A stretch of DNA of 64,000 nt from an uncultured Kiloniellales bacterium. Its GTDB lineage: Bacteria > Actinomycetota > Acidimicrobiia > Spongiisociales > UBA5794. Of this stretch, positions 18 to 47,194 are shown in pieces. Location: assembly GCA_964196275.1 (NCBI GenBank), contig CAXMSN010000067.1, positions 15,399 through 79,398 of the forward strand, given 5' to 3'. A program made the translations under genes and the position numbers. Position 1 is the first letter of the stretch; each line of letters opens with the position of its first letter. Below the pieces are notes generated by a model. It had not been told where the DNA came from, did not search any database, and was given only the letters and a program-made list of their open reading frames with translations.

Positions 18-320
18 GTGACTGAAGGCAGCCCCCACCCCAGGGTCTGGTCGCGCGAGCACTACGACTGGTCCCATCCGACACGGATCACATGGACCGC
101 CGTCGAGTCGAACTTCTGTCTGCCCGGGAGTCACGTCTCGATGGACCTCGCACCAAGACCGGAGGGTGGTACGACAGTCGCGGTGACCTGGGAGCGCACA
201 CCGAGCAATCTGAAGGGAAGCATGTCCATCGGCGTCGTGAGACTCGGGGGGGACCGCCTCCTCAGATGGGCTACACGTAGGTCACTGATTGAGATCGGCC
301 AGAAGCTGGGATCCGCGTAA
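18..320 (+). CDS. SRPBCC-like (polyketide cyclase/dehydrase-type) protein, probably the C-terminal part of a gene starting outside the window
   Basis: ORF 18..320. The frame has no stop back to base 3, so the N-terminus may lie upstream. Alternatively, AGGAGA at 1-6 could serve GTG-18. The family call is weak and rests on the beta-rich pattern (..GGTTVAVTWERTP..GSMSIGVVRLGGDRLL..) only. Confidence 0.45.
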   Translation: MTEGSPHPRVWSREHYDWSHPTRITWTAVESNFCLPGSHVSMDLAPRPEGGTTVAVTWERTPSNLKGSMSIGVVRLGGDRLLRWATRRSLIEIGQKLGSA

Positions 321-340
321 CCAGCCAGGGGCCCGTGCAG

Positions 341-1045
341 TTATGTCACGCCTGTGACGGCATGGAGGTGCCAGGTGCCTGGTACGCCTTTCAGATCGTG
401 AGCACCCTGATCCGTGAAGTCGATACCTGCTCCGATCACAGACTCCATGACGGTTCGGGTCACAAGGATCTCATCAGCATTGGCGGCCTCGGCAACACGA
501 GCCCCTATGTGCACGGCGATACCGCCGAGGTCGTCGCCCAGAATCTCGACCTCCCCTGAGTGCACGCCGATGCGCACGTGCAGGCCGATGTCGGCCGTCT
601 CCTTGCGGATCGCCGCCGCGCATCGGATGGCACGCGTCGGGCCGTCGAAGCTCGAGAGAAAGCCGTCCCCGGTCTGCTTGATCTCACGCCCTCCGAAGTG
701 GCGGATCTGTGCTCTTGTGATCTCGTTGTGACGCTCGAGCAGTGATCTCCACTCCGTATCGCCTCTCTGCGAGGCCTGGCGGGTCGAATCGACGATGTCG
801 GTGAACATCACGGTCGACAGGATGCGATCCGGTGACGGTATCGCCTTGCCCTTCTCGAGAAGCGCGGAGCGATAGTCCGTGAGGTACTGCTGCGAATTGG
901 CGAGGTAGTCATGGTCAAGTCTGTTGCGGAACATGGAGACACGGAAGACCTCGGCCCAGTCGGACACCGGCATCACATAGTCATCCACTGCCTGGAAGTA
1001 GAGCGGCCAACGTTTCACATGATCTTCCGACCGGAAGAGGTTCAT
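341..1045 (-). CDS. class III adenylate/guanylate cyclase catalytic-domain ORF (conventional ORF call; see extended model 341..1528)
   Basis: Cyclase motifs are present: 'TVMFTDIVDST' (metal Asp), 'IKQTGDGFLSSFDGP' (Lys + second metal Asp), 'GVHSGEVE' and 'GIAVHIGARV'. The first ~70 aa (MNLFRSEDHVKRW..) are not cyclase. They look like the C-terminal part of a MerB fold. No SD sequence precedes ATG-1045. Confidence 0.85.
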   Translation of the reverse strand: MNLFRSEDHVKRWPLYFQAVDDYVMPVSDWAEVFRVSMFRNRLDHDYLANSQQYLTDYRSALLEKGKAIPSPDRILSTVMFTDIVDSTRQASQRGDTEWRSLLERHNEITRAQIRHFGGREIKQTGDGFLSSFDGPTRAIRCAAAIRKETADIGLHVRIGVHSGEVEILGDDLGGIAVHIGARVAEAANADEILVTRTVMESVIGAGIDFTDQGAHDLKGVPGTWHLHAVTGVT

Positions 1046-1528
1046 GCGGCTTCAGTTGAATGCCCCCGAGCCTGCCCTGGACCGGGCGAATGGCGACGGC
1101 ATGTAACCAACTGCCGTCTCCGGACTGATCTCGAGTATCTCGTCGTCGAGCATTCGGATTCGAACCGTGTCGCCACAGTCCACGCATCGGGTCTCGACGA
1201 CTACTTCTTGGCCCGGAAAGAGCCAGCGCACGGCCAGCGATTCCATGCCTCACTGGCCGTACCATCCCGGCACGCCATCAACGCTTATCAGATGGTGGGT
1301 AGGAACGTTGCTGAAGGGTGCCCACGACTCGATGAAGTCGGTGTCCCTCGACAGCCAATACCCAGCGATCGGTGCGGCGTTCGCAGCCTCGGTCTGAAGA
1401 ACACGGGCCTCCTCCATCCCGATCCCGAGTTCGTCAGCCAACTCGGTGTAATGCGGAGCCCGCCCCGACGACACGAAGTGCTCGAGAATGGTCGTGAAGC
1501 CTCGTTGCACCAGATCCTGATCAGCCAT
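341..1528 (-). CDS. proposed 395-aa MerB-like (alkylmercury-lyase fold) / class III cyclase fusion, read through two in-frame UGA (Sec?) codons at 1252..1250 and 1054..1052
   Basis: ORFs 1250..1528, 1052..1246 and 341..1045 share one frame (1528-1246=282 and 1246-1045=201, both multiples of 3). They are separated only by TGA. A strong SD (GGGAGGG, 4 nt spacer) exists only before ATG-1528. The joined sequence reads '..GWYGQ-U-GMESLAV..' against MerB 'LYAW-C96-ALDTLI', and '..GAFN-U-SRMNLFRSEDHVKRW' against MerB 'SFC-C-HVHFFASVPTAEDW'. tRNA-Sec and a Sec-type selD lie in the same window. Confidence 0.55.
1019..1045 (-). promoter_or_regulatory. candidate SECIS hairpin downstream of the second UGA of the MerB-like/cyclase gene
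   Basis: The mRNA reads UGA AGC CGC AUGA-ACC-UCUUCC-GGUC-GGAAGA-UCAU. This gives a 4-bp lower stem, a 3-nt 5' bulge, a perfect 6-bp upper stem and a GGUC apical loop starting 20 nt after the UGA. As I recall it, the loop sequence matches the E. coli fdhF SECIS apical loop. Confidence 0.45.
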
Positions 1529-1604
1529 GTAGCCCTCCCGACACGGTGTCCACCGGAGTCGAGACTACTCGCCGCCAGGCTGTCACGAGGCGTCGGAGGC
1601 TGCG

Positions 1605-1644
1605 ATTCGATCTGGCAGAAGCCGTGGTTGCAGTAGCCGTTCGG
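1605..1644. repeat. 40-bp perfect direct repeat copy A (remnant of an msrA 3' end)
   Basis: 'attcgatctggcagaagccgtggttgcagtagccgttcgg' is identical to 2678..2717. On the minus strand it encodes ..[14 protein letters not shown].., the same as the MsrA C-terminus. Degraded similarity continues to ~1660, with TAG where msrA has Leu. Confidence 0.95.
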
Positions 1645-1767
1645 GTTGTTCGCTAGTACGGATTCCTTCTGCGCACATGTGCCGCGATGCGTGGCGCCGC
1701 GCGATCGGAGCGTGTACGTTTGCGAATAGGCGCCGCTCGGCGCGGTAACTGTTGAGAGAGGATCAAT

Positions 1768-2583
1768 GTGGCCAAGGACATCTGGCAGCAGTTGGAGAGC
1801 GCCGAGGATTCGACGATCGATCGAATCGTTGAGCGGCTTGAGATGCGTGGTCGCGACGATACGTTCATCGCGCTGATTGAGCGCTACCTCGACCTGATCG
1901 ACATTGACTCAATTGGCATCGTGTTGGAGTTGGGCTGCGGGACTGGGGTCGTGTCGCGGGCAATCGCCGCGAGACCAAATTTTGCCGGTTCGGTTGTCGG
2001 CTCCGACTACAGCGCCCAACTCGTTGAGGCTGCCCAGCGACTCGCCCGAGCTGAAGGTGTCGGAGACATCGTCCGGTTCGAGGTAGAAGATGCACAGGCG
2101 ACCCGGCAACCCAACAACACATACGACGCCGTGATACTGCACACGGTGGTCAGTCACCTGCCTGAGCCGGCCTCAGCTGTGGGCGAGGCAGCGCGAGCAG
2201 CCAAGCCGGACGGTGCCGTTGTTGTTTTCGACGGTGATTACGCGTCGCTCACGATTCACACCGGGCATCCCGATGATGAGACCGTGCTTCAGGCGATTCG
2301 GGACGTGTCGTCCGCCAATCATCACGTCATGCGATCCATGCCAGGAATCATGAAGCAGCAGTCGCTTTCGATCAAAAGCATCGATGCCTCGGTGCTCGTC
2401 GCTGCCGGTGAATCGCCTTTCTTCGGAAGCCTTGCAAGGACATACCTGCCCCTCGCTGTGGCGTCAGGGGAACTCGATCGGGACCTAGGGCGGGATTGGA
2501 TGACTTCGTTTGAGGCATCCTCAGCCGCTGGAACTGCCTTTGCCTCCTGCAACTATCTCTCCTACATCGCTCAACACGACTAG
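1768..2583 (+). CDS. class I SAM-dependent methyltransferase
   Basis: 271-aa ORF with a GTG start and GAGAGAGGA upstream. It carries SAM-binding motif I, 'VLELGCGTGVVSRAIA', and a post-I acidic residue ('VVGSDYS'). Confidence 0.85.
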   Translation: MAKDIWQQLESAEDSTIDRIVERLEMRGRDDTFIALIERYLDLIDIDSIGIVLELGCGTGVVSRAIAARPNFAGSVVGSDYSAQLVEAAQRLARAEGVGDIVRFEVEDAQATRQPNNTYDAVILHTVVSHLPEPASAVGEAARAAKPDGAVVVFDGDYASLTIHTGHPDDETVLQAIRDVSSANHHVMRSMPGIMKQQSLSIKSIDASVLVAAGESPFFGSLARTYLPLAVASGELDRDLGRDWMTSFEASSAAGTAFASCNYLSYIAQHD

Positions 2584-2657
2584 CCCGGCGCACACATCGC
2601 AGGCATTCTGAACAGTCCCAGGCATCGACGAACGACAGCGTTGGCCGGCAGACTCAC

Positions 2658-3275
2658 CTAGGCGTTGGTGGTCGCGTATTCGATCTGGCAGAAGCCGTGG
2701 TTGCAGTAGCCGTTCGGATTCTTGGCGAGATACTGCTGGTGATACTCATCGGCGTAGTAGAACGGGCCTGCGGACTCGATCTCCGTTGCGATGGATCCGA
2801 AACCTGCTTCCGAAAGACCCGCGCCGTACATCTCCTTGGAAGCGACAGCTATGTCCCGCTGCTCCTCCTTCGTCCAGTAGATGCCTGAGCGGTATTGCGT
2901 GCCGCGGTCGTTTCCCTGACCGTTCACCTGGGTGGGATCGTGCTGCTCCCAGAAGTGCTTGAGGATCTCATCGAGAGTGACGACCGATGGGTCATAGACA
3001 ACGAGCGCGGCTTCGGTATGACCGGTTCCTCCTGAGCACACCTCCGCATAGGTGGGATTCTCTGTCTGTCCGCCCTGGTACCCGGCAGCGGTCGTGATAA
3101 CCCCTGGCAAGTTCCAGAAGACTCGCTCGGAACCCCAGAAACATCCCATTCCGAATGAGATGACCTCTGAGCCCTCGGGGAACGGCGGCTTCATCGATGA
3201 GCCGTTCACGTAGTGGATTGCGCTGATCTGCTCCTCTTCAGGACGACCGGCGATTGCAGTATCTGCGGTTGGCAT
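2658..3275 (-). CDS. msrA: peptide-methionine (S)-S-oxide reductase MsrA
   Basis: 205-aa ORF with the catalytic motif '[13 protein letters not shown]' and a C-terminal '[11 protein letters not shown]'. The catalytic residue is Cys (TGC), not UGA. Confidence 0.93.
2678..2717. repeat. 40-bp perfect direct repeat copy B (inside the msrA 3' end)
   Basis: Identical to 1605..1644, in the same orientation, 1073 bp apart. Confidence 0.95.
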
Positions 3276-3376
3276 CTTTCGTGTTCTCCTTCGAAACCTG
3301 ATGGTGAAACGCTACCCGGCCGACACGCGTTCCATCTTCTTTGTGGCAACCGCCATGACCTCGGTAGGTTGACTCT

Positions 3377-5386
3377 ATGAAAGACACCTTCGATGGCCTT
3401 CGAACCGCAGTGCGTAAACGCGGCTCCGCAGCATTCCTTCTCGCTGCGGTGGTTCTCGGTGTTCTTGTTGGCTTTGCAACTGCAGTACTCGCATGGATGA
3501 TCGAAGCCGTAGAGGTCTTCACCGTGAACTTCGCCACATGGTCGACTCTGGAGCGAGCGGTGTTCCTGGTGACGATCCCGGCCGCGCTGACCATCTCATG
3601 GGCCCTCAACCGAAAGTGGGGCCCTGGCGTCTCAAGCGGCGGCGTCACCGAGACGATGGTTGGTCTGAGCCTGCACGGAGGCTATCTGCCGACGAGAGTG
3701 GTGCCGGCCAAGCTGCTCGCCACGGCAGTAACTCTCGGCGCCGGAGGCTCCGGTGGCCGTGAGGGCCCGATCGCTCTCATTGGTGCAACGATCGGCTCTT
3801 CGCTTGCCAGGTACACGAACTTCGATCACGACAAGATCAGAAGCCTGGTGGCTGCAGGCGCCGGAGCAGGTATCGGGGCGAGCTTCAACGCACCGATAGC
3901 TGGCATGTTGTTCGCGATGGAGGTGATCCTCGGTTCCTTTGCGATTCGGCACCTCAACGCAGTCGTCATCGCATCGGTGGGAGCCGCCGTCACGAGCCAC
4001 ATCCTCCTCGGAGACGAACAGTTCCTGACGGCGCCAGCGCACGCACTTGGAGCACCGAGTGAGCTCGTCCTCTACGTCGGGCTCGCCGGTATCGCCGTCG
4101 CTTTCGGCCTCCTGTACTTGAGGGCGCTCGATCTCGGTGCGCGTTACCGTCTTCCGGCGGCGTTCCCAGGCTGGATGTTCCCTGTCGTGGCTGGCCTCAT
4201 CGTTGGTGCGATCGGGTTGGTCGCACCAAATTCGCTCGGCACGGGTCACAGGTACCTGTCAGAACTCCTCGCCCTCGAGGACAGTGGCGGATTCGTCTGG
4301 TACGCCCTCGGTGCACTGGCCCTGGCGAAGATCGTCACCTCCGTGTTCACGAGGTCCGGTGGCGGCTCGGCCGGCACGTTCATGCCGAGCCTGTTCATAG
4401 GTGGCGCGGTCGGCGCCGGCTTTGCGATCTTGATCGACCCAATCTGGACTGGAACCACCCTGAAGCCTGGTGCGTTTGCGATCGTCGGGATGGCGGCTGT
4501 GTTCGCAACCATCGCCAGAGCACCCATGACGTCGGTCATCATCATGTTCGAGCTCACAGGCAACTACGAACTCGTCCTGCCACTCATGCTCGCCGCTGCT
4601 CTGGCCACCTACGCCGGCGAGCGAATCCATCCGGCAAACGCATACACGATCCCGCTCAAGCGCAAAGGCATAACCCTGCCGAAGAGCGAGGACATCGACC
4701 TTCTCGACACCGTGTTCGTGAGCACGGTGATGCAGCCGCTCGACGGTGCTCTTCACCCATGGACAACGCTCGCCGAGGCGGCAGAGTTGTTCGACAGTTC
4801 CACTCACCATGGAGCAGCGGTGCTGAGCGACCGCGACCATCTGGTCGGAATACTGACACTTGCCGATATCGCGCGCGCTGGAGGGCCGTCACTTTCAGTG
4901 ACCGTCTCCGAGGCTATGTCCGGTGATGTGATCACGGTGACCCCTGATGTCCCGGTCTCGATCGCGCTGACGCGAATGGCGTCTCTCGGCGTCGGAAGGC
5001 TTCCGGTCGTCTCCGAATCGGACCCGAGGCACGTCGTCGGGATGTTCCGACGCGAATCTGTCGTCAAGGCCTATGAGTCTGCGTTGTCCATGTCCAAGGG
5101 CAGGGAGCTGTACAGGGAACGGAAGCGGATTCGCACCCAGCCGGGAGCCGACTTCTTCGAAGCCACCGTTCGTGAAGGGTCCCCGATCGCGAACGCGTTG
5201 GTATCGGAAATCGCCTGGCCTGAGCACAGCGTGCTTGTGTCCATCCGCAGAGGAACCAACGTGCTCGTGCCTCACGGCAAGACATCGATTCGCGTCGGAG
5301 ACGTGATCACCTCGTTCGGCAGCCCGACGGCGAACCGCGGCTTCTCGAAGCTGACAGAGCCCGGGCCGAGCGGCGATCTGGAGTAG
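3377..5386 (+). CDS. ClC-family voltage-gated chloride channel/antiporter with C-terminal CBS pair and TrkA-C-like domain
   Basis: 669 aa. ClC motifs are 'SGGVTETMVG', 'GSGGREGPIALIG' and 'GTFMPSLFIGG', with multiple TM segments. The C-terminus has CBS-like repeats (..HHGAAVLSDRDHLVGILTLADI.., ..GVGRLPVVSE..HVVGMFRRE..) followed by an RCK-C-like tail. Confidence 0.9.
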   Translation: MKDTFDGLRTAVRKRGSAAFLLAAVVLGVLVGFATAVLAWMIEAVEVFTVNFATWSTLERAVFLVTIPAALTISWALNRKWGPGVSSGGVTETMVGLSLHGGYLPTRVVPAKLLATAVTLGAGGSGGREGPIALIGATIGSSLARYTNFDHDKIRSLVAAGAGAGIGASFNAPIAGMLFAMEVILGSFAIRHLNAVVIASVGAAVTSHILLGDEQFLTAPAHALGAPSELVLYVGLAGIAVAFGLLYLRALDLGARYRLPAAFPGWMFPVVAGLIVGAIGLVAPNSLGTGHRYLSELLALEDSGGFVWYALGALALAKIVTSVFTRSGGGSAGTFMPSLFIGGAVGAGFAILIDPIWTGTTLKPGAFAIVGMAAVFATIARAPMTSVIIMFELTGNYELVLPLMLAAALATYAGERIHPANAYTIPLKRKGITLPKSEDIDLLDTVFVSTVMQPLDGALHPWTTLAEAAELFDSSTHHGAAVLSDRDHLVGILTLADIARAGGPSLSVTVSEAMSGDVITVTPDVPVSIALTRMASLGVGRLPVVSESDPRHVVGMFRRESVVKAYESALSMSKGRELYRERKRIRTQPGADFFEATVREGSPIANALVSEIAWPEHSVLVSIRRGTNVLVPHGKTSIRVGDVITSFGSPTANRGFSKLTEPGPSGDLE

Positions 5387-21950: not shown

Positions 21951-21993
21951 AAAACGACAGCGGGGCCGCATATCGCGGCCCCGCTGTCGTTTT
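21951..21993. terminator. bidirectional intrinsic terminator (19-bp perfect stem)
   Basis: 'aaaacgacagcggggccgc-atatc-gcggccccgctgtcgtttt'. A-run and T-run flanks give a U-tract on both strands. It sits between the fadD stop (21938) and the 3' end of tRNA-Sec. Confidence 0.9.
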
Positions 21994-22087
21994 GGCGGAG
22001 GCGGACGGGAATCGAACCCGCCAGGGAACTTTCGCCCCCTCGTCGGTTTTGAAGACCGCGACGTCCACCAGGCACGCAATCGCCTCC
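21993..22087 (-). tRNA. selC: tRNA-Sec (anticodon UCA), 95 nt with encoded CCA
   Basis: The minus strand reads GGAGGCGATTGCGTGCCTGGTGGACGTCGCGGTCTTCAAAACCGACGAGGGGGCGAAAGTTCCCTGGCGGGTTCGATTCCCGTCCGCCTCCGCCA. Its features:
- Anticodon loop CUUCAAA (UCA).
- 8-position acceptor stem (7 bp plus A.C), discriminator G and CCA.
- 5-bp T stem with loop TTCGATT.
- ~7-bp variable arm closed by a GAAA tetraloop.
- D-arm with a 4-nt loop (UGGU). Confidence 0.9.
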
Positions 22088-22937: not shown

Positions 22938-24017
22938 TCAGGTCTCGGGTGGCGGCGCTCTCCGCTGCGACTCGTCTGCCTTATGGATCGCCCCATGGAT
23001 GGCCCTGTGGTGACTTCTACAGAGCAGACGCGTGTTGTCAAGTGACGTCGACCCACCGTTCGCCCAGTGGATGATGTGGTGGGCATCACACCACGACGCC
23101 GGTGCCGTGCACCCGGTCCATGTGCACCCACCATCCCGCATCTCGAGAGCCCGTCTGAGTGACGGCGGGATCGTCCGCACCCGCCTGCCGACGTCGATCG
23201 GCTGAGATTCGGAGTCGATGAGCATGCGGACGACGCCAGCATCGCACAGCATGCGTTTGATGGCTTCCAGGTCAACCGGGGATCCGTCGATCTCGGAAAG
23301 TCGTTGTCTGTCACCCACGAGCGTTGCGTAATCGATGGTGATCGTTGCATGCGGCTTCTCGCCACCCGATGTCCTCACCGACTGATTGTGGTCCAGCCAG
23401 AACCGGCAGATATCCACCAGAGCGTCAGCCCGACGCTGTCTCGGCGAGCGTGACTCAGCTGCATCGATGTTGGATGCGTGAACGAGGGAGTTCAGCGCTG
23501 TATCAATGAAGTGGCCACCTTCAGGTGCAAACGTGCCCTTGGTCGCCCATAGGCCCTCGAACGTCTGATCGTGGTGGAACCCGCGGAGCGCCTCGAGCTT
23601 CTTGGCGTCAGCGAGTGCATCGTCATAGTTGACCTGCTGTTCCCAGTGACCGATGGCCCGTCTCAGATCCTTGAGAGAGAGATATGTGGCGGTGTCTGCG
23701 AACACCTGCTCATGGATGGCGAATTCATCTGGGTAGCGATCCCTCGCTTGGCTGAGAAGTTGCACAGATCGCGACGGAACCTTTCCGTTGAGTGCGTTCC
23801 TCGTCACCGTTGGCATGTGGGAGAGGGCTCGTGCCACCTTGAGGGTTCCCGACGCCTCGCCCGACGACATGTAGCAGCGCTGCATCAACCAATTCGTCGT
23901 GGAGATCCGATGGTCCAGCACGGGTAACGCCCGGTCGTCGAGTTCCTTGACATGGATGGCAAGGAGAGCCGACACGGCATCGATGTGCTGCTTGAGACCG
24001 ACGACCGCCTGCTTCAA
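22938..24017 (-). CDS. DUF222 / HNH endonuclease (13E12-repeat-type). The N-terminus is apparently frameshifted, with the ancestral ATG at 24139.
   Basis: 359-aa ORF from TTG-24017. The HNH region reads 'CTWTGCTAPASWCDAHHIIHWANGGSTSLDNTRLLCRSHHRAIH'. Removing one copy of the 14-bp duplication at 24039..24066 joins it in-frame to ATG-24139 (MTNQNLAPCRAMVSIEDGEPLATQIQEHVDRLPNEALKQAVV..). Confidence 0.85.
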   Translation of the reverse strand: MKQAVVGLKQHIDAVSALLAIHVKELDDRALPVLDHRISTTNWLMQRCYMSSGEASGTLKVARALSHMPTVTRNALNGKVPSRSVQLLSQARDRYPDEFAIHEQVFADTATYLSLKDLRRAIGHWEQQVNYDDALADAKKLEALRGFHHDQTFEGLWATKGTFAPEGGHFIDTALNSLVHASNIDAAESRSPRQRRADALVDICRFWLDHNQSVRTSGGEKPHATITIDYATLVGDRQRLSEIDGSPVDLEAIKRMLCDAGVVRMLIDSESQPIDVGRRVRTIPPSLRRALEMRDGGCTWTGCTAPASWCDAHHIIHWANGGSTSLDNTRLLCRSHHRAIHGAIHKADESQRRAPPPET

Positions 24018-46053: not shown

Positions 46054-46135
46054 CTCTCTCCTTGTCGCTTCCACCAGAGTAGATGGCGTCGGCGGACCGC
46101 ACGCAATGGCCGGCTCATCGACTACTTTCCTTGTA

Positions 46136-47194
46136 ATGGAAAGCCCTCGACTCACCGCATACAGCCACGGCGCCGGTTGAGCATGCAAGCTCGGTCCTGA
46201 CGAGTTGGCGCAGGTTCTGCGCCCCATGCACAACACAGCTGCGACGACGCACCCGGACCTGATCGTGGGTATCGCCGGCTCAGATGACGCCGGGGTCTAT
46301 CGCATTGATGACGATCGAGCGATGGTCCAGACTGTCGACTTCTTCACACCGATCGTCGATGACGCATACGACTGGGGAAGGATCGCAGCGGCGAACGCGC
46401 TGAGCGACGTTTATGCAATGGGTGGAGATCCCATCACGGCCCTCCAGCTTGTCGGGTGGCCAAGGGATGACCTTCCCTTCGACCTTCTCTCGCGGGTGAT
46501 CGAAGGTGGTGTTTCGGTGATGGTCGAAGCCGGATGCACGGTGATCGGCGGCCATTCCATCGACGACCGGGAACCGAAGTACGGATTCGCCGTGACCGGC
46601 TACGTTCCGACCGACGAGATCATGACGAACGCGGCAGGCGAACCAGGACAGGTTCTCATCCTCACGAAGCCGATCGGAACCGGAATCATCGCGACGGCGA
46701 TCAAGAACCAGAAAGCGAGCAGCGAGATCACAGCGACAGCGGTCGACATCATGGCGACGCTCAACCGGGATGCCGCTGACGCAGCGAGGCGCGTCGGTGT
46801 CAAGACCGCGACCGATGTCACCGGGTTCGGGTTGCTCGGCCATCTCTCGGAGATCGTTCGAGCGTCGGGAGTCAGCGCGGAGATCGAGTTCGACGCGGTG
46901 CCGCTCATCGACGACGTGACACAGATGGTCGAGGACGGCATGATCCCCGGAGGTACCAGGCGGAACCTGAAGTCAGTCCGGTCGATGTGCGACTTCGGTG
47001 AGCTTGACAAGAACGCACAGCTGCTCCTTGCCGATGCGCAGACAAGCGGGGGGCTCCTGTTGAGCGTTGACGCCCCGTTGGAGCAGGCCCTCCATGTGGC
47101 GCTCGCTGACAACGGGGTTTCCTCATGGACGATCGGCAGCCTCACTGAGCGTCCCTTCGAACACGGACCGTCAGGCAGGATCACCGTCCGCTGA
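46136..47194 (+). CDS. selD: selenide, water dikinase (selenophosphate synthetase) SelD with in-frame UGA (Sec-15) at 46178..46180
   Basis: ATG-46136 gives 'MESPRLTAYSHGAG-U-ACKLGPDELAQVLRPM..', against E. coli SelD '[21 protein letters not shown]'. The rest matches SelD: 'DDAGVYRI', 'TVDFFTPIVDD..DWGRIAAANALSDVYAMGG', 'TDVTGFGLLGHL' and 'AQTSGGLL'. The ORF track splits it into 45917..46180 and 46205..47194. Confidence 0.9.
46185..46209 (+). promoter_or_regulatory. candidate SECIS hairpin of selD
   Basis: It starts 4 nt after the UGA: GCAAGCUCG-GUCCUGA-CGAGUUGGC. The stem has 8 pairs (one G.U) plus one A.G mismatch, with a 7-nt loop at +14..+20. Confidence 0.5.

Follow-up and report, generated by a model that had tools for sequence, protein, structure and literature searches.

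A predicted double-selenocysteine MerB-like module fused to a class III adenylate cyclase in an uncultured Acidimicrobiia bacterium

Introduction

A selenoprotein related to the organomercurial lyase MerB has been published: SaoL (NF040728), a MerB-like organometallic lyase in which the selenocysteine (Sec, U) of a CU dipeptide aligns with MerB Cys159, and which is encoded in the nine-gene SAO locus of strict anaerobes (Haft & Gwadz, bioRxiv 10.1101/2022.07.06.499078 / J Bacteriol 2023). Other bacterial proteins, MbdU (NF045648), MduS and TsoB, carry two Sec residues (PMC13188914). In a 2026 catalogue that covers 119 prokaryotic selenoprotein families, SaoL is the sole entry under MerB, and no nucleotide cyclase or other second-messenger enzyme is included; BSepDB holds nothing beyond SaoL for MerB-type selenoproteins, and neither Peng 2016 nor the GOS 2008 paper with its supplements mentions MerB. 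Here we analysed a stretch of 64,000 nucleotides (the window) from an uncultured bacterium placed by GTDB in the Acidimicrobiia (GenBank assembly GCA_964196275.1, contig CAXMSN010000067.1, positions 15,399 to 79,398). An original prediction, made from the sequence alone, had read positions 341..1528 of its minus strand as one gene for a MerB-like module fused to an adenylate cyclase, with an in-frame TGA at both catalytic cysteine positions of the module.

The window protein and its relatives share with SaoL the MerB superfamily (PF03243), a Sec at the Cys159 position, database truncation at the UGA and the lack of a classical mer operon. However, SaoL has one Sec and retains Cys and Asp at the positions of Cys96 and Asp99, respectively, whereas the window family has a predicted Sec at both nucleophile positions and Glu as the acid. 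SaoL has its CU dipeptide, whereas the window protein reads GAFN-U and other members have Ala, Trp, Arg and other residues before the second Sec, but never Cys in the alignments examined. The conserved nine-gene locus of SaoL also has no counterpart in the window family, which is without a conserved neighbourhood and has in addition a CxDC motif, a C-terminal extension, and cyclase and AAA fusions. Scores against the SaoL model were 31.1, 38.5, 38.1 and 40.2 bits, against a curated cutoff of 140.

With MerB itself (R831b MerB, 3F0O/3F0P/1S6L; MerB2, 5C17), the family shares the fold, the nucleophile/acid/nucleophile positions and an equivalent of the buried Cys117. The residues at the three positions are Cys/Asp/Cys in MerB but Sec/Glu/Sec in the window family, the identity is only about 14-17%, and the family differs further by an extra C-terminal helical region, by its fusions and by having no merA, merR, merT or merP nearby. 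The canonical MerB models (NF033555 / PRK13239) gave 24-42 bits, against equivalog cutoffs of 193-200.

The cyclase half resembles Rv1900c/LipJ (1YBT/1YBU; NF058673), with the same metal Asp motifs, the same unusual VHIGAR signature (His for Asn), and the same order of an N-terminal enzyme-fold domain and a C-terminal cyclase. The N-terminal partner is an alpha/beta-hydrolase in Rv1900c/LipJ and a MerB-like selenoprotein module in the window protein, and the adenine-specifying position is Asn in the former and Lys in the latter. The full LipJ model (NF058673) scored 190.8 bits against a cutoff of 800, with the match limited to model positions 290-448, the cyclase part.

MbdU, MduS and TsoB likewise have two UGA-encoded Sec residues per polypeptide, and a metal-binding role has been proposed for some of them. 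However, their folds and motifs (CU, CxxU, UxxxxU) are unrelated to those of the window protein, whose two Sec residues are 66 positions apart with one selenocysteine insertion sequence (SECIS) each. No NCBIfam match to these double-selenoprotein models was found at E<=1, and no other NCBIfam model, in a library that includes those of Haft & Tolstoy 2025, matched any of the three architectures of the family. The double-Sec MerB-like family and its cyclase fusion are absent from the 2026 catalogue and from NCBIfam. The original prediction had called the arrangement undescribed; this stands for the double-Sec family and for the fusion, but not for a MerB-like selenoprotein as such, given SaoL.

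Results

A single reading frame interrupted by two UGA codons

Positions 1528..341 of the minus strand form a single frame of 395 codons followed by a TAA stop (343..341). The three open reading frames 1250..1528, 1052..1246 and 341..1045 all lie in this frame, and the sole interruptions are TGA at 1252..1250 (UGA-1, codon 93) and TGA at 1054..1052 (UGA-2, codon 159), which fall on the positions of MerB Cys96 and Cys159, respectively, in profile alignments and homologue columns. The same unbroken frame was seen in homologous loci. A Shine-Dalgarno-like GGGAGGG, read from the sequence, lies at 1533..1539 on the same strand, 4 nt 5' of the ATG at 1528, and this start is consistent with the N-termini of homologues. 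Both the one-frame arrangement and the ribosome-binding site were as originally described. We conclude that 1528..341 is one gene, with a product of about 43 kDa.

Public gene calls cut this coding sequence into pieces of 92, 64 and 234 aa, in keeping with the expectation that standard gene callers would miss the gene, and in the public annotation of the window's own species the 92-aa and 234-aa pieces are separate gene calls. The segment that follows Sec159 was matched by a further 647 clusters, mostly of 74-79-aa 'hypothetical proteins', among them an NCBI/UniRef entry from Geomonas. In the protein search, homologues fell into four length classes: fragments of about 130 aa whose last residues are ...WYGQ; fragments of 155-158 aa that have Cys at column 93 and end at column 159; cyclase-bearing fragments of 232-234 aa starting at Met162; and stand-alone proteins, about 236 aa long, that show C, S or W at the two columns. 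These lengths can be explained only by gene callers that end the protein at codons 93 and 159. The 'W' at both columns of public homologues corresponds to TGA at the DNA level, called under genetic code 4. In the JGI calls P0010, P0015, P0029, P0030, P0035 and P0040, both Sec codons were rendered as Trp, the caller having switched to code 4 on short contigs.

Conservation of the two TGA columns

We scanned one genome per GTDB species and found the MerB-like double-Sec family in at least 558 species-level genomes. Column counts were taken from the best 80 loci, which are the closer relatives (identity >=43%); their selection was not biased towards Sec, because tblastn penalises TGA. At column 93, 76 of the 80 loci had TGA and 4 had Cys (TGC/TGT). 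At column 159, TGA was present in all 79 loci that cover it. No further in-frame TGA occurred before the natural stop in any of the 80. The loci come from Actinomycetota, Chloroflexota, Desulfobacterota-type 'delta' lineages, Nitrospirota, Myxococcota, Gammaproteobacteria and Spirochaetales, including Acidimicrobiia, Anaerolineales, Dehalococcoidia and Chloroflexia and many 'delta-proteobacterial' orders. Protein conservation was strong across all three pieces of the split gene. The original argument that two chance nonsense mutations would hardly fall on both catalytic positions gains from this result, with the same two columns being TGA in dozens of genomes.

Natural Cys/Sec pairs were found at both columns. 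Cys codons (TGC/TGT) occupy column 93 in L002, L012, L013, L015, L022, L089, L091 and L093, and Cys codons occupy column 159 in L089 and L090; the natural homologues P0014 and P0009 have Cys159. A second genome combines Cys93 (TGT) with TGA at column 159, and its cyclase continues in frame.

Two further cases were observed. In the stand-alone locus L090:563-1273 (P0009), column 93 is a Ser codon (TCA) and column 159 a Cys codon (TGT), and both downstream hairpins are intact; the survival of both hairpins despite these codons indicates a very recent loss of Sec coding, as judged from sequence. The metagenome-assembled genome (MAG) GCA_023336815.1 holds two paralogues, a cyclase-fused Sec/Sec form (L009) and a stand-alone Cys/Sec form (L093) in which the site-1 hairpin has decayed.

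A conserved hairpin follows each UGA

Hairpins were examined in UGA-anchored gapless alignments of 77 sequences for site 1 (A3) and 81 sequences for site 2 (A4). In the window, SECIS-1 (1217..1243, minus strand) has a lower stem GAA/UU(U)C, an upper stem of 6 bp (GCUGGC/GCUGGC) that starts 11 nt after UGA-1, and the loop CGUGC. SECIS-2 (1016..1048, minus strand) has, in the window fold, a lower stem CGCAUGA/UCAUGUG, an upper stem UCUUCC/GGAAGA and the loop GGUC. The site-1 alignment showed stem onset exactly 11 nt after the UGA, with 98.7% of cells paired compared with 27-57% in slid controls. At site 2 the stem CUCUUCC/GGAAGAG lay 12 nt after the UGA, and its six upper pairs were 100% paired in the 81 sequences. 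The loops of both conserved hairpins contain G-U, and the changes seen in the stems keep pairing (G.U to A-U or G-C; U.G to U-A).

Because the stems were too invariant for covariation, synonymous-site and Sec-versus-Cys tests were used. Among amino-acid-conserved codons, to which the test was restricted, mean normalised synonymous codon entropy was 0.37 for the 13 hairpin codons versus 0.88 for the 65 other codons (Mann-Whitney P=6e-6), and it was reduced for each hairpin alone (P of about 6e-4). Leu164 (CTC), Phe165 (TTC), Arg166 (CGG) and Ser167 (TCG) were 100% fixed, while the other Arg codons of the gene were near saturation. In L089, a Cys/Cys homologue, the same residues F-R-S-E are spelled TTT CGT TCT GAA, and neither stem is intact. 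The site-1 stem was intact in 74/77 Sec forms versus 3/8 Cys forms (Fisher P=9e-5).

Folding of the window sequence after each UGA gave a hairpin at both sites. SECIS-1 was the minimum-free-energy fold of its segment, and SECIS-2 had a free energy of -15.9 kcal/mol (z=-3.75); only the latter exceeded shuffled sequences. A permissive Rfam scan of the gene matched no SECIS family. The original prediction had credited only UGA-2 with a SECIS, because SECIS-1 is not thermodynamically outstanding in the window. This caveat was wrong, as the hairpin after UGA-1 is conserved at the canonical 11-nt spacing in 77 sequences. The conserved pattern argues that each UGA is directed by its own bacterial SECIS, 11-12 nt downstream.

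Selenocysteine machinery and stop-codon use in the window

The window contains a tRNA-Sec gene (selC, anticodon TCA) at 21993..22087 on the minus strand (ARAGORN; Rfam RF01852, 70.4 bits), the only hit of the Rfam gathering scan of the window. It also contains selD at 46106..47194 on the plus strand (tblastn E=5e-86 and translation; start approximate), itself a selenoprotein gene with SHGAG-UGA-ACKLGP and the UGA at 46178..46180. Both genes had been named in the original prediction. TGA terminates 7 of the 12 verified window genes and is internal to none of them; the genome is therefore not recoded, TGA being an ordinary stop.

Cys/Sec pairs, TGA conservation across phyla, a SECIS at both sites and the Sec machinery in the window bear out the core of the original prediction, one open reading frame with Sec at both catalytic-Cys positions. 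On this sequence evidence, we have little doubt that both UGAs are decoded as Sec.

The hairpin after the selD UGA begins about 10 nt downstream, and its GGUCC-containing loop resembles the GGUC loop of SECIS-2. The neighbours of selD are genes for a 3-hydroxyacyl-CoA dehydrogenase and MgtE. The tRNA-Sec gene is flanked by a DUF222/HNH endonuclease gene at 22941..24017 on the minus strand (Pfam E=5e-26 and 5e-6) and, on the other side, by a FadD-like acyl-CoA ligase gene. The DUF222/HNH gene was considered as a selenoprotein gene and rejected, since it ends at a real TGA stop, and no other selenoprotein gene was found in the window.

The N-terminal module has a MerB-like fold and active site

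Domain searches were run on the joined translation with U replaced by C. The Pfam MerB model (PF03243) matched aa 72-190 with E=4e-18 (66 bits, gathering threshold 27). The module as a whole spans aa 1-230 (839..1528, minus strand); in it, the MerB core is preceded at the N-terminus by a winged-helix-like domain and followed at the C-terminus by a helical extension specific to the family. The family profile aligned with the solved MerB2 (5c17) at E=9e-9 and with R831b MerB (1s6l/3f0o) at E=0.02. Codon 93 corresponded in the profile alignments to Cys96, Glu96 to Asp99, Cys115 to Cys117, and codon 159 to Cys159, the first Cys of FCCHVHFF, which agrees with the original placement of the TGAs on Cys96 and Cys159 and of Glu on Asp99. 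The Glu96 codon (1241..1243, minus strand), at the position of the MerB proton donor Asp99, encodes Glu in every one of the best 80 loci that covers the column. The C-x-D-C motif (1175..1186, minus strand), with Cys115 (TGC) and Cys118 (TGT) as ordinary codons as had been noted, occupies family-invariant columns; Cys118 is peculiar to the double-Sec MerB-like family.

An AlphaFold model of the natural Cys/Cys homologue P0014 reached a pLDDT of 94 and a pTM of 0.89; it covers this stand-alone homologue, not the cyclase fusion or inter-domain contacts. Searched with Foldseek, its 11 best PDB matches were all MerB or MerB2 (E of about 2e-9, TM up to 0.67), followed by a gap and then by weak winged-helix matches on the N-terminal domain alone. 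As modelled, residues 1-230 have the fold of the organomercurial lyase MerB, and a Sec93-Glu96-Sec159 site appears to replace Cys96-Asp99-Cys159 of MerB, to which it would be chemically analogous, not identical.

The C-terminal domain is a class III cyclase

A class III adenylate cyclase catalytic domain of the Rv1900c/LipJ type occupies aa 239-386 (371..814, minus strand). The Pfam Guanylate_cyc model (PF00211) matched this range with E=1e-11 (45 bits, threshold 21.9), the cyclase region of the NCBIfam LipJ model with E=3.5e-56, and 1ybt (M. tuberculosis Rv1900c/LipJ) with E=2.9e-44. These matches, together with that to Pfam MerB, agree with the originally proposed order of winged helix, MerB-like core and class III cyclase. 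The alignment to 1ybt showed both metal Asp residues (in FTD and GDGF), the adenine-specifying Lys in EIKQTGDGF, the Asp in GDDL, and a His/Arg signature, VHIGAR, identical to that of 1ybt; the metal Asp and Lys motifs had been described as intact. With this complete set of catalytic residues, the cyclase domain is probably active.

Family architectures and gene neighbourhood

The family has three architectures: stand-alone proteins of about 236 aa, cyclase fusions of about 394 aa in Acidimicrobiia, the window protein included, and AAA-type P-loop fusions of about 520 aa in Anaerolineales and Actinomycetota. The cyclase fusion by which the original prediction had framed the finding is thus real, but it is only one of the three. 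The AAA fusions (L020, L021 and L024-L030; for example, L020:4001-5560) carry a domain of about 280 aa with Walker A AAPGSGKT and Walker B LVDEIDA (Pfam AAA E=1.6e-5), for which no closer family match than Pfam AAA was found. The family is common in anoxic-sediment lineages, namely Syntrophales, Desulfobacterales, Anaerolineales, Dehalococcoidia, Thermodesulfovibrionales and Geomonas.

Directly upstream of the window gene lie a divergent gene for an S-adenosylmethionine-dependent methyltransferase (1768..2583, plus strand) and a gene for a Cys-type methionine sulfoxide reductase A (MsrA; 2658..3275, minus strand). Contigs of the same species keep this arrangement, which is not conserved in the family at large. 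In a contig of this species (L006:7387-13650), a sulfur-trafficking cluster is located past the left edge of the window and a few kb downstream from the gene, with genes for DsrE-like and DsrC-like proteins, a pyridine-nucleotide disulfide oxidoreductase, a DUF302 protein, three rhodaneses and a metal-sensing repressor of the CsoR type.

A small gene for a cyclic-nucleotide (cNMP)-binding protein of about 110 aa adjoins the cyclase fusion in three species of the Cys93/Sec159 subclade (L002:3424-3762, L012:5364-5660 and L022:2259-2570); it is absent from the window. It is possible that this small protein is a cognate cyclic AMP (cAMP) receptor. In the Logan assemblies L091/L092 (genes at about 276-4085), a stand-alone Cys/Sec member lies near genes for a divergent HxlR-type regulator, a luciferase-like monooxygenase and a HAD hydrolase, and near an open reading frame with a weak match to GRDB (glycine reductase selenoprotein B). 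A role in a defence system was considered and rejected, all PADLOC matches being insignificant.

Discussion

We consider it likely that the window gene as a whole encodes a double-Sec MerB-like module fused to a cyclase, with a site that may bind a soft ligand and may thereby control the output. By analogy with MerB, the two selenolates would grip a ligand such as a soft metal, an organometallic or an electrophile, with Glu96 as the proton donor. Where the module is fused, its liganded or modified state may control the output domain, which here would mean cyclase dimerisation or activity, hence cAMP. The sensor role and the soft-metal or organomercurial ligand, both already put forward in the original prediction, are to be read as hypotheses. 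Since two UGAs have to be recoded, synthesis of the full-length enzyme would also depend on the supply of selenium. That the Sec-Glu-Sec module is, more generally, a widespread selenium-based input domain, which captures a soft metal, organometallic or oxidant and signals to cAMP or to an AAA ATPase, is a tentative proposal that we hold as possible rather than probable.

Several observations weigh against this interpretation. For Sec decoding, formal covariation was not demonstrable in either near-invariant stem, and shuffle controls were not exceeded. The stability of SECIS-1 in the window was at the level of shuffled sequences (z=+0.38), in a GC-rich sequence; the selD SECIS of the same genome was equally unremarkable against shuffles (z=-0.29). 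Neither selA nor selB was found adjoining selC or selD within the window, and their absence beside selC is unusual. One cyclase-fused locus, L023 (L023:4001-5200, an Ilumatobacter sp. MAG), has both TGAs and an extra TAA at Tyr90, probably a pseudogene or a sequencing or assembly error. For the role as a sensor, most family members are stand-alone, which suits an enzyme at least as well. Three neighbourhood analyses gave no conserved neighbour (best partner in <=11 of about 80 loci), and merA, merR, merT and merP were absent among the neighbours of about 80 loci. Since there is neither a mer operon nor any other conserved neighbourhood, nothing specifically indicates mercury.

One alternative is that Sec93 and Sec159 form a diselenide/selenol redox switch or a peroxide or electrophile switch rather than a metal site, whose oxidation gates the cyclase or AAA domain, with the stand-alone forms being redox proteins. 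The two positions would be close enough to bond, because one Hg atom is bound jointly by their equivalents in established MerB structures, which share the fold. Redox proteins make up most of the known selenoproteins (review table), the invariant CxxC-like C115-x-x-C118 could serve as a resolving pair, and mer genes are absent nearby. However, the entire MerB fold is retained, and all loci have Glu96 at the Asp99 position, a hallmark of protonolysis that a simple redox switch does not need. We regard a redox switch as unlikely, but as an explanation to be taken seriously.

The module could also be a true catalytic lyase of organometals, acting on carbon-metal or carbon-metalloid bonds, with the cyclase as a second, independent activity as in LipJ and no sensing link between the two. 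This would fit the fully conserved nucleophile-acid-nucleophile triad, the enzyme-like stand-alone proteins of about 236 aa that make up the majority, and the fusion of the nearest cyclase relative, Rv1900c/LipJ, to an enzyme domain. Against it, the same module is joined to two unrelated output or ATPase domains, as is typical of input modules, and Hg-Se chemistry suggests that two selenolates would release a bound Hg(II) very poorly, favouring binding over turnover. We judge an independent lyase to be rather improbable.

Termination at the TGAs, in a pseudogene with two nonsense mutations or in three small genes, would agree with the separate fragments given by gene callers and NCBI annotation and with the additional TAA of L023, but it can practically be dismissed given the same two TGA columns in about 76-79 of 80 diverged genomes without frameshifts, the protein conservation across the pieces, the Cys codons at these columns in some homologues, the synonymous-site-conserved hairpins after both TGAs, and downstream 'genes' that would begin in the middle of a domain. 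Readthrough of UGA without Sec, whether by genome-wide use of TGA for Trp or Gly or by near-cognate insertion of Cys or Trp, could draw on the W at both columns of the JGI homologue calls, but is most implausible, as those W are TGA called under code 4, TGA ends 7 of the 12 verified window genes with no internal TGA, and tRNA-Sec, a Sec-type selD and a position-specific SECIS after each UGA are present.

If Sec is decoded at both sites, a family from at least 558 genomes would be added to the prokaryotic selenoproteome. Gene callers, including that of NCBI, now cut its members into two or three 'hypothetical' fragments, an error that can be fixed, and the code-4 Trp artefact in metagenome calls could be mined systematically for selenoproteins with multiple UGAs. 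For chemistry, the family would offer a MerB site in which both nucleophiles are selenium in nature, and its Cys/Sec and Cys/Cys relatives make the role of selenium versus sulfur in carbon-metal bond chemistry testable.

The anoxic-sediment lineages in which the family is common overlap the guilds that methylate mercury. This overlap makes the family a candidate for mer-independent organometal transformation. With no cyclase or second-messenger enzyme among the 119 catalogued families, the fusion would tie selenium biochemistry to cAMP signalling. If the proposed role as a selenium-based input domain is correct, the window protein would be the first selenoprotein known in cyclic-nucleotide signalling, and cAMP production would be coupled to the availability of selenium.

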